Positions 32,327 to 37,484 are shown, counted from the first letter of the stretch. The stretch: DNA of 64,000 nt from Methylococcaceae bacterium (GCA_050303415.1 JBNLBS010000019.1:16545-80544), one strand, 5' to 3'. Notes: generated by a model not told the origin, from the sequence alone. Numbers and translations are program-made.

Positions 32327-32920
32327 TTAATCCATTCGATTAAGCGCTGAGCTTAATGTTTTTACTGTTTCCAATACCAGTTTACGTTGTGCTTGATCCA
32401 AGGATGAATATAAGGTCATCAGTTCGCGTATATCTTCCGGAAATGACAAGCACAATGGATCGTGCTCAACATGCTGTTCATCCATCCAGCCCTTAGGAAG
32501 TGAAAAATGACTTTCATATTTTCTCGCAATGGTTCTGGAGATGGTTTTAAACGGGTTATCAATAAATAACAAAAGTTTATCAATATCGATGTCTAAAGAG
32601 TGTACGAATTCATTTAATTTTTTTTCCTGGTCTTTGATTTCTTCATAACTATTACACAGGTTTTGATGCCGGATGGCCTGCAGATCCCTGGCATTGGGCC
32701 GAATAGGTCCGAGCCCGAACATCAGCCAGCAGGGTGAACTTTGTGTGGCTTTGGCAATTCGTAATATATCATCCGGCCCCGGGGTTGATATACCGGCTTC
32801 ATAATTACCGATTCGTGATGCGCTCCAGCCCGGTATTTGTTCCAATAGCGCAGCCTGAGTATTAAGCCCGGCCATTTTTCTAGCCATTTTTATCCGTGCC
32901 GCAATCGTTTTTTCGCTCAT
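32327..32920 (-). CDS. XRE/Cro-CI-family HTH transcriptional regulator with unrecognised ~140-aa C-terminal domain; start probably MSEKTIA at 32920
   Basis: HTH_XRE pattern IAARIKMARKMAGLNTQAALLEQIPGWSASRIGNYEAGISTPGPDDILRIAKA. Confidence 0.7.
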   Translation of the reverse strand: MSEKTIAARIKMARKMAGLNTQAALLEQIPGWSASRIGNYEAGISTPGPDDILRIAKATQSSPCWLMFGLGPIRPNARDLQAIRHQNLCNSYEEIKDQEKKLNEFVHSLDIDIDKLLLFIDNPFKTISRTIARKYESHFSLPKGWMDEQHVEHDPLCLSFPEDIRELMTLYSSLDQAQRKLVLETVKTLSSALNRMD

Positions 32921-32999
32921 AATTTTGCTTTTTAACCTTGGTGTGAACAATCAATTCATTTATTGGCACAACATTTTACAAGAAACTTGAAAAAAAATA

Positions 33000-33027
33000 T
33001 TGACAATCTTGATTTTAATTTTATAAT
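33000..33027 (+). promoter_or_regulatory. Near-consensus sigma-70 promoter TTGACA-16 nt-TATAAT with upstream A-tract
   Basis: TTGACA 33000-33005, TATAAT 33022-33027, AAAAAAAAT UP-like element 32991-32999; divergent from XRE gene. Confidence 0.55.
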
Positions 33028-33034
33028 GCCACCA

Positions 33035-33248
33035 ACATTTAATTTATTAGGATTATTCCCTGATGACTTTTAACAACGGAAAACTAAATATACGCAAGCA
33101 GCCGGCAATAGCAATGCTTTATACATTGCATGCTGTTTGTTACAGGTTGAGTTAGGTCTTCCGTTTCAGGAAGGCCGTGCAGTTGCCTTCCAACTTATTA
33201 AAGTTTCAGTAGAAACCCCGGTTGGATCTCTGCCAACCGGGGTTTTTT
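33035..33248 (+). ncRNA. Candidate small transcript (sRNA or mRNA for a 28-aa peptide MTFNNGKLNIRKQPAIAMLYTLHAVCYRLS) ending in a strong rho-independent terminator
   Basis: Consensus promoter upstream. Internal hairpins are present. Terminator AAACCCCGGTTGG-atctctg-CCAACCGGGGTTTTTTATT lies at 33213-33250. Confidence 0.3.
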
Positions 33249-33530
33249 ATTGCCCAAGGACAGGCTACCTACTTTAACCGTTAGTTCTTGAGGTAGATTT
33301 GTCAGTCAGGTTTTGGATGCACTTAACGTGACCGGTATCAGCCTGACCGCAGAATTCAGGTAACTGACATGATTGCAAAAAGCTTGTTGTTATAACTAAA
33401 CATTAATCATCGATAATCCGATGTACCGAATTGGACGGATGCTGTTAATCCAGCGGTTCAGGTTCTGTATACCTGTCCGGCGCACGATACATTTTGTTGA
33501 CTGTGTACCCGATTAATAGTGGTTCAATAA

Positions 33531-33603
33531 CTCGAGGATAGCTCAATGGGTAGAGCGGTTGACTCATAATCAACTTGTTAAGGGTTCAAGTCCCTTTCTT
33601 CGA
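33531..33603 (+). tRNA. tRNA-Met (anticodon CAT)
   Basis: Manual cloverleaf folds in full: 7-bp acceptor TCGAGGA/TCTTCGA with one G-U pair, D-arm GCTC-AATGGGTA-GAGC, anticodon stem GTTGA/TCAAC with loop CTCATAA, T-arm AAGGG-TTCAAGT-CCCTT. CCA is not encoded. Confidence 0.7.
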
Positions 33604-33606
33604 TCC

Positions 33607-33674
33607 TGGAAAAGTAGCTCTTGGTGAGCCCGGATGATAAATCCGTTTATGTAGGTTCGAATCCTACCTTTTCA
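33607..33674 (+). other. Degenerate tRNA-like element: intact acceptor, T-arm GTAGG-TTCGAAT-CCTAC, but D-loop and anticodon loop only 5 nt each; 3 nt downstream of tRNA-Met
   Basis: Manual folding: GGAAAAG...CTTTTCA acceptor with 1-72 mismatch, D GCTC-TTGGT-GAGC, AC-stem CGGAT-GATAA-ATCCG; 68 nt, too short for a canonical tRNA. Confidence 0.35.
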
Positions 33675-34005
33675 CTTTTAACCTGCAACACAGGTTTATT
33701 TTGATCTTCGGATCGTAGGGTCGGCGCCAGTCGGCGAATATGGAGTTTGTTTGACAAAGGATGTTGGAGACAACGGCGTATTGGCTTTGCATGGTGTCAG
33801 CCGGATAAAGTTCAGAACAGTTTATTGATACAGGTCCATTCGATGGGCGCGCTTGACAGGATGTCCACATCAGCAAACAGGTCTTTACTTTTTCCGCCAG
33901 ACAACATCCGCCAATAGGTCGTGGCGCCGAACCTAAATTTTTACCAATAAGGATTTAAACAATAATACTGCCTTAAAAGGCAACAAAAAGGGAATGGAGG
34001 GAACA

Positions 34006-35145
34006 ATGTTTATCAAACGATTTATCATTGCCGAAAATGAACGCGGTTTGTTTTTTCACAACCGGACTTTACAGGACATTATGGAATCCGGCGTCTACAC
34101 CTTTGTCGATTGGCGCAACCGGATTAAAGTCGAAATTTTCGACTTGAACGAACCGGTTTTTAAACACAGTCTGGAGGATGTGTTGTTAAAGCAGCACGAG
34201 GATTTATGCAAAACCTATTTCCAGGTCATCCAGCTGAATGAAAACCAAGTAGGTTTGGTCTACCGCAACGGCCTATTATCTGAGGTGTTACCGCCTTCTA
34301 CCAGAACGTTTTACTGGAAAGGTTTGATTGATATAGACGTTGAAGTCATCGACATTAAATCCGATTTTCAATTGGATGCAGACAAGACCCGGTTATTGAC
34401 CCGTGTGCGAGATGCTGCATTGGTCAGGGTTTTGGCTAACTACATCACTGTTGCCGAAGTGGCGGACCAGCATGTCGGTTTATTGATTGTCGACGGTCAG
34501 TTGATCAAGGAATTACAGCCTGGTGTCTATGCATTTTGGCGTTTCAACCGCTCGATTAAAGTCGAAATGGTCGATAAACGGGTTCAAATGATGGAAGTCT
34601 CAGGTCAGGAAATTTTGACCGGAGACAAAGTGTCATTACGAATCAATCTGTCAGTGGCCTTTCAAATACAGGATGCGGTGAAAATACGTTCAGCATTCAA
34701 GGATATGTTCGATTACTTGTACCGCGAATTGCAATTCGGTTTACGACAAGCGGTAGCCGGTAATACGTTGGATAATTTATTAGCGGAAAAAGGTTCGGCC
34801 GAACAATGTGTATTTAAATACATTTTGGAAAGGATTCAAGATTGCGGTATTCGCTTTATTACAGTCGGTATTAAAGACATTATTTTGCCGGGTGATATGA
34901 AGTCGATTTTAAACCAGTTAGTGGAGGCGGAAAAACAGGCTCAGGCCAATGTTTTAAAACGCCGCGAAGAAACCGCAGCAACCCGGTCATTGCTGAACAC
35001 TGCAAAATTGATGGATGAAAATCCAACTTTAATGCGTTTGAAAGAGCTGGAGGTTTTGGAAAAAGTCACCGGCAAAATTGACCGCATGACCGTTTTCGGC
35101 GGTTTGGAAGGTGTCTTAAAAGATACCGTTAAAATCAATGTGTAA
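34006..35145 (+). CDS. SPFH/band-7 (stomatin-prohibitin-flotillin) domain protein. Its N-terminus has two extra tandem copies of the SPFH N-terminal beta-unit. Start ATG 34006 after GGAGGG
   Basis: C-terminal LRINLSVAFQIQD...ITVGIKDIILPGDMKSILNQLVEAEKQAQANVLKRRE SPFH core is present. Three internal repeats begin ERGLFFHN..., ENQVGLVYRNG... and DQHVGLLIVDG..., each followed by G-Y-F-W and the [IV]KVE/DVEV motif. Confidence 0.7.
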   Translation: MFIKRFIIAENERGLFFHNRTLQDIMESGVYTFVDWRNRIKVEIFDLNEPVFKHSLEDVLLKQHEDLCKTYFQVIQLNENQVGLVYRNGLLSEVLPPSTRTFYWKGLIDIDVEVIDIKSDFQLDADKTRLLTRVRDAALVRVLANYITVAEVADQHVGLLIVDGQLIKELQPGVYAFWRFNRSIKVEMVDKRVQMMEVSGQEILTGDKVSLRINLSVAFQIQDAVKIRSAFKDMFDYLYRELQFGLRQAVAGNTLDNLLAEKGSAEQCVFKYILERIQDCGIRFITVGIKDIILPGDMKSILNQLVEAEKQAQANVLKRREETAATRSLLNTAKLMDENPTLMRLKELEVLEKVTGKIDRMTVFGGLEGVLKDTVKINV

Positions 35146-35260: not shown

Positions 35261-36457
35261 ATGCCTATAAAAATGAAAATGACAAAAGGCAAGGTACCGG
35301 TCAAAGTTTGGACCGAAGATATTGAATACGGTGCCATTCAGCAATTATGCAATATCGCGCAAATGCCGTTTATCCATAGTCATGTTGCGGCCATGCCTGA
35401 TGTGCATCAGGGGATTGGCGCAACCGTGGGTTCGGTGATACCGACCAAGGGCGCCATTATACCTACCGCAGTGGGTGTTGATATCGGCTGCGGAATGAAT
35501 GCGGTCAGGTTAACGCTTAAAGCTGAACAATTACCGGACACTCTAAAACCGGTGCGTAACGCCATTGAAGCGGCCGTACCTGTCGGCTTTGCCATGCATA
35601 ACAAAGATATGGCCAGACATTCGACCATTATTGCTTTGGCCGAACCATTGGGCCGATTACAGGAAAAGCATCCGGCGATCAAAAAAATGCAGAAAAAGCC
35701 ATTTCAAACCTGGGTTAGACAACTGGGTACTTTGGGTGGCGGCAACCATTTTATTGAACTGTGCCTGGATGAAAGCAACGACGTCTGGATTATGCTGCAT
35801 TCCGGCAGTCGGGGTATTGGTAATGCGATCGGACGTTACTTTATCCAGTTGGCCAAAAAAGATATGGGGCAACAACTGGGACATTTACCGGATAAGGATC
35901 TGGCCTATTTTACTGAAGGTGCACAATACTTTGAGGATTATGTCGAAGCCGTGCATTGGGCGCAGGATTATGCCATGTGGAATCGCAGGGAAATAATGCG
36001 TTCGATAGTTGATGCATTGAAAGACGTCCTGCCGCGATTTCAAGTCAGCAAGGAAGCGATTAATTGCCATCATAATTATGTTGCGCTCGAACAGCATTTC
36101 GGGGAACAGGTTTATCTGACCCGCAAAGGGGCGATCAGTGCCGGCCAAGGCGAGCTGGGTATTATTCCCGGCAGCATGGGGGCCAAGTCCTATATCGTTC
36201 GGGGTAAAGGTTGTGCCGCTTCATTTCATTCCTGCTCACATGGTGCTGGCCGGGTAATGAGTCGTTCACAGGCCAAAAAACGCTACAGTTATCGGGATGT
36301 CGAAGCGCAGACTGAAGGCATTGAATGCCGAAAAGACAGCGGCGTTATCGATGAAATTCCGGCGGCCTATAAGGATATTGATCACGTAATGGAGAACCAA
36401 TCAGACTTGGTTGAGATTGTACATACCCTGAAACAAGTCGTTTGCGTCAAAGGATAA
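35261..36457 (+). CDS. rtcB: RNA-splicing ligase RtcB (3'-phosphate/5'-hydroxyl RNA ligase)
   Basis: Conserved metal/GTP-binding residues pattern: VGVDIGCGM, GGGNHFIE, HSGSRG, CHHNY, full length 398 aa. Confidence 0.9.
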   Translation: MPIKMKMTKGKVPVKVWTEDIEYGAIQQLCNIAQMPFIHSHVAAMPDVHQGIGATVGSVIPTKGAIIPTAVGVDIGCGMNAVRLTLKAEQLPDTLKPVRNAIEAAVPVGFAMHNKDMARHSTIIALAEPLGRLQEKHPAIKKMQKKPFQTWVRQLGTLGGGNHFIELCLDESNDVWIMLHSGSRGIGNAIGRYFIQLAKKDMGQQLGHLPDKDLAYFTEGAQYFEDYVEAVHWAQDYAMWNRREIMRSIVDALKDVLPRFQVSKEAINCHHNYVALEQHFGEQVYLTRKGAISAGQGELGIIPGSMGAKSYIVRGKGCAASFHSCSHGAGRVMSRSQAKKRYSYRDVEAQTEGIECRKDSGVIDEIPAAYKDIDHVMENQSDLVEIVHTLKQVVCVKG

Positions 36458-36506
36458 GCCGGATGTTCGGTTGGGCATCCGGTTTTATTGCAACAGGAAA
36501 ATTGTT

Positions 36507-37484
36507 ATGAAACTGGAAACTATTAAAGAAATTATTGAAATCATGCCTAAAGGTAAAACCAGATTTCACTATTTTAAAGATCGCTACGCTTTAATGTTGT
36601 TATCCGATTTAATTGAAGACGGGATTAAACTTTCCGAGCTTAAGACGACACCTTGGGCAAAACTGTTGAACCGACCGCTGGTTAAAAGCTTGAGCTCCCA
36701 GTGTGGTGACGGTGTGCTTTATAAGCATGATCTGGACAGTATCTGGCCGGATTTTACCAGGCAGTTTTTACTTACATTAAGCCAATGGGGCGGAGAACGG
36801 GCAAGCTGGCAACAAACCTGCCGACATGGCTACAATCTGGTATTGCAACTGAATTTCAGCAATCAGCATCATGCCTTGTTTAACAAACTGCTAAGGCCGA
36901 TGAAACATCATAGCCTACGCAGTTGCGGGCATCCGGTTATGCAGCCGGATGAACGTGAGTTATTTCGGGAAACACTGGCCTGGGCACGTATAGATCTGGA
37001 TTTTGACCGCAATGAAGCCCTGATTGAAGAAATTCAAAACGACTGGCTTAGGAATGCGCTATGGTGGTTGAGTTATGTCAAAAGATGTCAAAAAAATCAA
37101 CGACGGTTACCCGCAAATTACTGTTTGCAGACCGACTTGGAAAAAGTCCAAAGCTATTGCGATAAAGTATTAATGCCATACCGCAAAATGTGGGATGAAG
37201 CGATGTTGGCGGCCAGCATCGATTTTATCTACAAGCAGCTGGGTATAAACGTCATTTATTATCACAGCTACGAAAGCGGCGCCTGGTTAAAGTCCATCTC
37301 ATCTACGCTGCCGCCTCGGTCTTTATATACCGATTTACCTAAGCGCTTTTGTTTTACCTGTACCGAACAGGAGCCGACTTTCCTATCTGAAGATCGGTAC
37401 TTTAGAAACCGTAAACGCAAGGGTAAACACCTAAACTATTACTGGTATAGGATGGATTTGGGAGCTGGTCATGTTACGGCCTAG
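36507..37484 (+). CDS. Hypothetical Cys/His/Trp-rich protein co-transcribed with rtcB (start probably MKLETIKEI at 36507 after AGGAAA)
   Basis: 325 aa, no recognisable motif; CGDG, CRHG, CGHP, CFTCTEQ Cys clusters; 50-nt gap from rtcB. Confidence 0.45.
   Translation: MKLETIKEIIEIMPKGKTRFHYFKDRYALMLLSDLIEDGIKLSELKTTPWAKLLNRPLVKSLSSQCGDGVLYKHDLDSIWPDFTRQFLLTLSQWGGERASWQQTCRHGYNLVLQLNFSNQHHALFNKLLRPMKHHSLRSCGHPVMQPDERELFRETLAWARIDLDFDRNEALIEEIQNDWLRNALWWLSYVKRCQKNQRRLPANYCLQTDLEKVQSYCDKVLMPYRKMWDEAMLAASIDFIYKQLGINVIYYHSYESGAWLKSISSTLPPRSLYTDLPKRFCFTCTEQEPTFLSEDRYFRNRKRKGKHLNYYWYRMDLGAGHVTA

Follow-up and report, generated by a model that had tools for sequence, protein, structure and literature searches.

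The 64,000-nt stretch of DNA analyzed here (hereafter, the window) comes from a Methylococcaceae bacterium (GCA_050303415.1, JBNLBS010000019.1:16545-80544) and carries a gene for a Band-7/SPFH ("slipin") protein, whose next gene is rtcB, with two tandem tRNA-like modules lying upstream on the same strand (Table 1). The first module (E1) is annotated as a tRNA-Met, and the second (E2), a 68-nt element whose end is located ~330 nt upstream of the Band_7 coding sequence, is the main subject of this study. The existence of E2 was confirmed, and chance does not explain it. Comparison with related loci shows E2, at the level of its sequence, to be a conserved, structurally constrained and apparently non-decoding tRNA-shaped module of a Band-7-associated RNA.

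We first describe the anatomy of E2. The Rfam tRNA model (RF00005, gathering score 29 bits) matched it at 33608-33675(+) with 31.4 bits, a marginal pass, and this register is shifted by one base from the interval 33607-33674 given in an earlier note on this DNA. A second covariance model (named R1), built from 60 aligned tRNA-like elements upstream of Band-7 genes with the window sequence excluded, matched at 33608-33676 with 40.9 bits (E 5.5e-11, 64 kb searched). E1 and E2 were the only R1 matches in the window, each scoring above its generic tRNA-model score. The earlier note had not read E2 as a normal tRNA, and no tRNA finder called it one: ARAGORN, run on the whole window, was silent on E2 and found a single tRNA, tRNA-Met(CAU) at 33532-33606, and Rfam gave only the marginal tRNA match above. 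The minimum free energy (MFE) fold of 33607-33678 is a compact cloverleaf (-20.5 kcal/mol, z = -2.5 versus shuffles). Its acceptor stem had been described as 7 bp long and actually consists of six Watson-Crick pairs (G33609-G33614 with C33668-C33673) and a mismatched G33608.A33674 at 1:72. The D stem (GCUC/GAGC, 33617-20 with 33626-29) carries the loop UUGGU, which has the 5 nt reported before. For the anticodon arm, the MFE fold gives a 5-bp stem (33631-35 with 33641-45) and a loop of 5 nt (GAUAA), as first claimed; this loop size does not hold in the alignment with orthologues, where seven loop positions (UGAUAAA) sit on four conserved pairs, U32/A38 are pairable, and position 33 is G, so that U33 is absent. 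Between the D and T stems, the anticodon region is 1 nt shorter than in the orthologues and 2 nt shorter than in a canonical tRNA. The variable region is UUUAU. The T arm was rightly called canonical (GUAGG-UUCGAAU-CCUAC, 33651-33667; GGTTCGAATCC at 33654-33664). Of the family core described below, U8, A9, the D stem, GG and the T loop are retained in E2, and A14 and A21 are missing from its D loop of only 5 nt. The ends of E2, GGAAAxG...CCUUUUCAC, are common to Competibacter elements.

The closest relatives were then considered, each with enough upstream sequence for examination (n = 7; Band-7 proteins 63-82% identical). The tandem pair was found in 7/7 of them, with an E1 of 59-84 bits, a gap of 1-5 nt and then a lower-scoring E2 of 23-48 bits. 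Identity to the window E2 is 58-73% in five of the seven, and 41% and 48% in the most distant ones (L137 and L001). By comparison, E1 and E2 of the window share 48% identity overall and 46% in the 3' half. Because most E2 copies are more alike than the window E1 and E2, the duplication of E1/E2 is old and does not represent an att-type repeat. The previous statement that E2 is not a copy of the tRNA-Met 3' end, and that att duplication is unlikely, is consistent with these values. We rejected an att-site duplication on the same 3'-half identity, the lack of an integrase among the large open reading frames (ORFs), and the housekeeping/flagellar context.

Covariation was assessed in eight E2 sequences (the window and the seven relatives), with 500 shuffles and slid partners as controls. 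A total of 94.4% of E2 stem cells are paired, compared with 78.6% in shuffles (0/500 reached the observed value) and 38-59% in slid controls; the covariance-model-based count is 153/161. Moreover, 13 of the 16 pairs have changes on both sides, which is the positive outcome of a check for compensatory changes in relatives that the earlier note had suggested, and the short D hairpin is common to all E2 copies of the clade. The stem pairing, the double changes and the common D hairpin therefore indicate a maintained RNA structure and not a pseudogene; the suggestion of a decayed tRNA gene fails on the orthologues of the seven relatives, whose stems are kept by compensatory changes.

Similar considerations apply to E1. 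It has no encoded CCA, and the sequence runs ..UCUUCGA-U-CCU. Among close relatives, its anticodon loops vary (CAU, UUU, GAU, CAA, odd 7-mers, or 5 nt long), and the acceptor stem is constant in the same organisms. Because the anticodon loop differs among close relatives, E1 is not a housekeeping tRNA; the "tRNA-Met" of the window is, on this comparative evidence, a Band-7-associated mimic of the same presumably non-decoding family as E2, not a translation tRNA. A blastn search of 33000-34000 against a phage collection revealed just generic tRNA similarity of 57-62 nt to E1, with no sign of prophage origin.

To place both modules in a wider family, we used the Band-7 protein, whose close homologues number in the thousands and are named "slipin family protein"; 27 aligned homologues led to 80 loci taken from other species. 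In most of these loci, ARAGORN called tRNA-like genes, one or two per locus, on the Band-7 strand and 250-650 nt upstream of Band-7; their "anticodons" are mixed (Met, Ile, Thr, His, Arg, Gln, Pro, Leu and others), and their loops are often abnormal. An R1 match upstream of Band-7 on the same strand was detected in 77/80 loci, mostly 250-650 nt away. The 60 aligned elements show no variation at U8-A9, in the GCUC/GAGC D stem, at A14, at G18 (the leading G of the D-loop GG), at A21 or in the GGUUCnAnUCC T loop, and at least 90% of them keep G19 and A26. Covariation is evident in the acceptor, anticodon and T stems, with 93% of stem cells paired and a covariation score of 0.685 versus 0.166 in shuffles and 0.10-0.15 with slid partners. 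Of these 60 elements, 36 lack the 1:72 pair; anticodon arms are 1-5 nt under canonical length in 25/98 family members, and a UUCG-type tetraloop caps the anticodon arm of Pseudomonas copies. In seven Pseudomonas loci of the survey, two odd tRNA-like elements were seen as a pair upstream of Band-7. Anticodon loops that drift or shorten on a kept body therefore point to selection for the tRNA body, namely the acceptor/T stack and the D/T elbow, rather than for the anticodon. Where tRNAs are called directly upstream of slipin/Band-7 genes and their anticodons are assorted or "???", they probably represent mimics outside the decoding set. Neighboring genes were counted in 87 Band-7 loci (L001-L083, L137-L141): RtcB lies within ~4 kb in only 38 of them, the helix-turn-helix (HTH) regulator upstream in nine related loci, and the third operon gene in eight. 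Since RtcB is nearby in only 38/87, the invariant pair consists of the tRNA-like RNA and Band-7.

Second modules are also widespread. A second T-arm element was found at most 140 nt away in 54 of the 76 loci (71%) with a main element, some of them full cloverleaves as in E2. About 28 second modules are "mini" elements located just downstream of the main element, which consist of YGGUAAAG, a hairpin of 3-5 bp (often with a GNRA-type loop) and a T arm, and have no acceptor or D stem; their T stems covary (GCGG/CCGC, GUGG/CCAC, GGGG/CCCC). Rfam has no family for mini or other second modules. E2 thus appears to be the fully cloverleaf version of a recurrent second module. In Burkholderiales (L070-L077, e.g., L074 3629-3746), an extra T-arm/mini element lies upstream of the main element, and this pair gives a sub-threshold YrlA match (27.3 bits; RF02553 cutoff, 69 bits); it may represent a permuted YrlA-like arrangement.

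Besides the two modules, further examination of the region between E2 and Band-7 revealed a structured leader. This segment of ~320 nt is conserved in the window clade, and the leader in it (33677-33945) contains two hairpins (P1 and P2) and a domain of ~215 nt, inside whose closing helix a second long helix pairs CGGCGUAUUGGC with GCCAAUAGGUCG; a conserved U run lies 3' of the domain. RNAalifold on six relatives predicted 58 leader pairs, 33 of which have compensatory changes, and the window leader alone folds alike (z = -3.85). A comparable closed domain, flanked by the same motifs, is present in Competibacter loci, and the domain was seen in the window clade, L004, L007 and Competibacter. 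A strict motif-plus-complementarity scan recovered the inner helix in 6/78 loci and in none of the shuffles, and nhmmer with the clade leader alignment retrieved close relatives only. When Rfam was applied with a permissive threshold, no family other than tRNA was found and the leader has no family, the YrlA, SpF41 and plastid matches being sub-threshold look-alikes. A hairpin plus U-run separates the RNA from Band-7 in only 13/78 loci; the rarity of terminators before Band-7 argues for co-transcription with the operon.

Upstream of the pair, a promoter-palindrome-terminator block (33000-33248), which L140, L004 and L141 also retain, lies between the HTH gene and E1/E2 and might represent a small RNA or an attenuator. 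No sigma-70 consensus promoter was found directly upstream of E1. The motif TGTGTACCCGAT near E1 may be a promoter or operator; when inspected by eye, this region fitted neither a sigma-54 nor a sigma-E reading.

Regarding the proteins of the operon, AlphaFold2 models Band-7 (pLDDT 79) as three beta repeats at the N terminus, an SPFH domain and a long helix at the C terminus, with no apparent transmembrane segment, and the protein looks cytosolic in this model. Foldseek matched the model to the cage-forming SPFH proteins stomatin, HflK/C and prohibitin (E ~1e-14 to 1e-10), and the longest alignments, which extend along the whole Band-7 protein, were to major vault protein (410-460 columns, E ~1e-9). 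A protein-domain scan of window ORFs of at least 300 aa detected no TROVE/Ro60, RtcR, RtcA or integrase, and gave no family match for the third operon gene. The wider context is an ordinary chromosome, with leuB, leuC, asd, flagellar genes and sucrose metabolism. According to PADLOC, Band-7, RtcB and the third protein match no known defence-system protein, and the HTH regulator alone gives a marginal RmrA match (E 0.00099). In one close relative (L141 2682-3337), the place of RtcB after Band-7 is taken by a MazE-like antitoxin and a PIN-domain (VapC-type) protein. Cleavage of tRNAs is common among PIN toxins.

Table 1. Features of the window around E2, and mini elements at other Band-7 loci
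Feature	Position	Strand	Evidence or remarks
E2, reduced tRNA-like module	33608-33675	+	Rfam tRNA, R1, fold, orthologues, covariation
E1, near-canonical tRNA-like module	33532-33604	+	ARAGORN tRNA-Met(CAU); Rfam 68.6 bits; R1 75.9 bits
Hairpin P1, AACCUG-CAACA-CAGGUU	33680-33696	+	Terminator-like in consensus scan; covaries as GCCUG/CAGGC and UCUGU/ACAGA in relatives
Hairpin P2, GAUC-UUCG-GAUC	33703-33714	+	Covaries as GACC/GGUC and GGCC/GGCC in relatives
Leader domain, ~215 nt	33718-33933	+	Closing long-range helix, GGGUCGGCGCC with GGCGCCGAACC
Band_7/SPFH ("slipin") gene	34006-35145	+	Pfam PF01145, 3.4e-24; mechanical ORF from 33994, likely start 34006
RtcB RNA ligase	35261-36457	+	Pfam PF01139, 4.1e-131
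Third operon gene	36504-37484	+	Uncharacterised family with GNAT-like core, 326-337 aa
HTH_3 (DicA/XRE-like) regulator, divergent	32327-32950	-	Pfam, NCBIfam
Sigma-70 consensus promoter, TTGACA-16-TATAAT	33000-33027	+	Beside palindrome ACAAGAAACTTG
Strong intrinsic terminator	33216-33248	+	~190 nt past promoter/palindrome
Motif TGTGTACCCGAT	33502-33513	+	19 nt before E1; kept in every clade member (alignments)
Mini elements	20-60 nt past main element		L003, L005-L012, L014, L015, L018, L019, L021, L026, L029, L030
Mini elements, further loci	20-60 nt past main element		L042, L045, L054, L056, L061, L062, L065, L067, L073

RNAs of this kind have been predicted before. In the passages that deal with them, Wang et al. 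(bioRxiv 10.1101/312249) relay from Burroughs and Aravind (2016) a predicted tRNA-like noncoding RNA beside Band-7 and RtcB, which was proposed to contribute to RNA ligation/repair as a cofactor and which "strongly resembles an authentic tRNA". As far as can be judged from sequence, E2 fits this "band-7-associated tRNA" class (b7a-tRNA), because it combines Band-7/RtcB adjacency, R1 homology and orthologues with compensatory changes. The idea of a tRNA mimic tied to the rtcB locus, raised in the earlier note, is also supported, the relevant neighbor that had been missed being Band-7/SPFH. Outside the close relatives, a metagenome pattern scan for the 3' half of E2 (AGGTTCGAWTCCTRCCTTTTC) yielded 53 matches, nearly all of them unrelated tRNAs and none of the window E2 type; a tblastn Band-7 match was obtained in that scan only for L109, L112 and L115, and L124 and L104 are b7a-like only by sequence and R1 score.

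We regard it as probable that E2 is a Band-7-class tRNA-like module that works via its L-shape as a handle for the operon proteins, in a ribonucleoprotein (RNP) for tRNA/RNA repair. According to this model, E1 and E2 would head a structured RNA of ~400 nt, directly upstream of and on the same strand as the genes for a putatively cytosolic Band-7 protein and RtcB. E2 would share a transcript with E1 and the leader domain, and probably also with the Band-7 mRNA, and would act by its L-shape (the acceptor/T-arm stack and the elbow of T loop and GG) with no use of the anticodon. This tRNA-shaped handle might be bound by a vault-like Band-7 oligomer and/or by RtcB, and the RNP so formed may assist in repairing broken tRNAs or detect when such repair is needed. 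The specific protein partner of E2 is much less certain than the overall reading. In a further elaboration, which we offer as a speculative and rather doubtful possibility, E1, E2, the two hairpins and the ~215-nt domain would form one undescribed RNA of ~400 nt, with a vault-like SPFH cage in the cytosol as its cognate partner; the elbows would be grips for the cage or RtcB, or damaged tRNAs would compete with the elbows and thereby switch the operon on.

Several points weigh against an RNP handle for repair. A14 and A21, invariant in the main family, are lost from E2, whose score is far below that of E1. The definition of the family used here comes from our survey of Band-7 loci together with the class description available via 10.1101/312249, and in that secondary account the band-7-associated tRNA class was still unvalidated in 2018. 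Our literature search found no later experimental test of it; the name b7a-tRNA appeared only in the preprint of Wang et al., and papers on the Pseudomonas aeruginosa Band-7 protein PaFlo8/PA4582, which is encoded inside the rtc locus, made no mention of any RNA. With RtcB near in fewer than half of the counted loci, the link to ligation is not obligatory. In addition, a cis-acting leader would account for the constant same-strand position upstream just as well as a trans-acting cofactor would.

The last point leads to a purely cis-acting function, in which E1 and E2 would serve as RNase P/RNase Z punctuation or as a tRNA-mimic operator, and would set the ends, stability or translation of the leader/Band-7 mRNA, with no role as a free RNA. 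The feedback at the thrS leader is an analogue of such an operator, and plant-mitochondrial t-elements and mascRNA are analogues of such punctuation. RNase P and RNase Z recognise the acceptor/T-arm and elbow of tRNA, the only parts that are conserved here; the elements are always upstream of Band-7 on its strand, a terminator in between is rare, and a conserved structured leader lies 3' of the pair. However, the mini elements have no acceptor stem and thus cannot be substrates of either enzyme, the elements are 300-450 nt from the ribosome-binding site with a large domain between, and a processing signal would not need a D arm as strictly invariant as that of the main family. We therefore consider this function unlikely. 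Decoys or sensors for tRNA-targeting nucleases (anticodon nucleases, VapC/PIN toxins), resealed by RtcB, would account for the presence of RtcB in the operon, for the MazE/PIN pair beside Band-7 in one relative, and for E1 anticodon loops that diversify fast and mimic frequent toxin targets (CAU, UUU, GAU), and related ideas exist in the literature, namely a competitive inhibitor for YrlA (PMC7790460) and a "sponge" for operonic tRNAs (PMC8421152). Yet E2, the tetraloop-capped arms and the mini elements offer no anticodon loop to attack, the loop of E2 being shortened and without U33, and this role has in our view only a small chance of being the right one.

The remaining alternatives take E2 for something already familiar. 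That it is a decaying tRNA pseudogene from a tandem duplication, as its low tRNA score (31.4 bits), the missing ARAGORN call and the shortened D and anticodon regions might suggest, is very improbable given orthologues in seven relatives with 94% of stem cells paired and 13/16 double-changed pairs, a short D hairpin found clade-wide, and just 48% identity to E1. Slighter still is the chance of a YrlA-type Y RNA or of a genuine decoding tRNA with an unusual fold. The T arm and the D-loop GG, the nearby rtcB and the marginal Rfam tRNA pass speak for this pair of options, and the likeness to the system of YrlA and Ro60/Rsr (rsr-yrlBA-rtcBA operons) extends to a tRNA mimic with T-/D-arm features at an RtcB locus, with a putative scaffold protein beside it. 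The YrlA lead of the earlier note does not survive, however: the RF02553 match reaches 16.1 bits against the cutoff of 69 and merely runs across the T arm of E1 and the D arm of E2, which is a known type of false positive for tandem tRNAs (PMC4201824), and there is no Ro60/TROVE gene among the window ORFs of at least 300 aa. In YrlA, the tRNA-like domain is permuted and attached to a Ro-binding stem, whereas E2 forms an ordinary cloverleaf with its arms in canonical order. A canonical decoding tRNA is disfavoured as well, since E2 has a short loop and no 7-nt loop with U33 on a 5-bp stem, a 1:72 mismatch, and a D loop UUGGU without A14 or A21.

An RNP handle for repair can also be compared with other known systems. 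The locus shares with the band-7-associated tRNA of Burroughs and Aravind a tRNA-like RNA beside Band-7 and RtcB, E1 being strongly tRNA-like; it differs from that class, which is known here by secondary description, in that E2 is a second copy in reduced form, its D hairpin and anticodon arm both being short, and in that the pair is followed by a covarying leader domain of ~215 nt. The vault particle likewise combines a cage-type protein of beta repeats, SPFH-like shoulder and long helix with small structured RNAs, although vault RNAs, unlike E1 and E2, are not cloverleaves. This likeness lies in fold and architecture only (TM ~0.45, 10-13% identity), and assembly and RNA binding of the Band-7 protein are predictions from the model. 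Plant mitochondrial t-elements and MALAT1 mascRNA are degenerate tRNA shapes within longer transcripts, in which the acceptor/T-arm shape counts and the anticodon does not; they are defined by RNase P and RNase Z cleavage, whereas the likeness here is by shape only, in other taxa and with other partners.

Arrays of 9-20 apparently normal tRNA genes adjoin many Band-7 loci, upstream in L012, L021, L067, L057, L071, L016 and L007, downstream in L056, and also in L109. The arrays of up to 20 tRNAs at many surveyed Band-7 loci recall the stress-induced L-arrays of Anabaena that are co-regulated with rtcB; the Anabaena trn operon and TrcR regulon, which includes a slipin gene, similarly link extra tRNA genes to rtcB and an HTH repressor. 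Array tRNAs are aminoacylated and decoding (PMC8421152). In contrast, the loops of E1 and E2 are drifting or shortened, and there are only two modules in a fixed position.

Bacterial RtcB repair systems are widespread; to our knowledge, their substrates and cofactors are largely unknown, and the Band-7 branch has had no experimental attention. This locus and the comparison across 80 genomes provide a concrete RNA, composed of two tRNA-shaped modules and a covarying leader, together with a candidate protein partner of predicted vault-like architecture. They also provide evidence that an annotated "tRNA-Met" is no translation tRNA and that selection acts on the tRNA elbow rather than on the anticodon. 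For annotators, the mis-annotated "tRNAs" upstream of slipin/Band-7 genes are a warning. For the family, the window exemplifies a class that has a pair of elbow modules and, in several lineages at least, an extensive structured leader.
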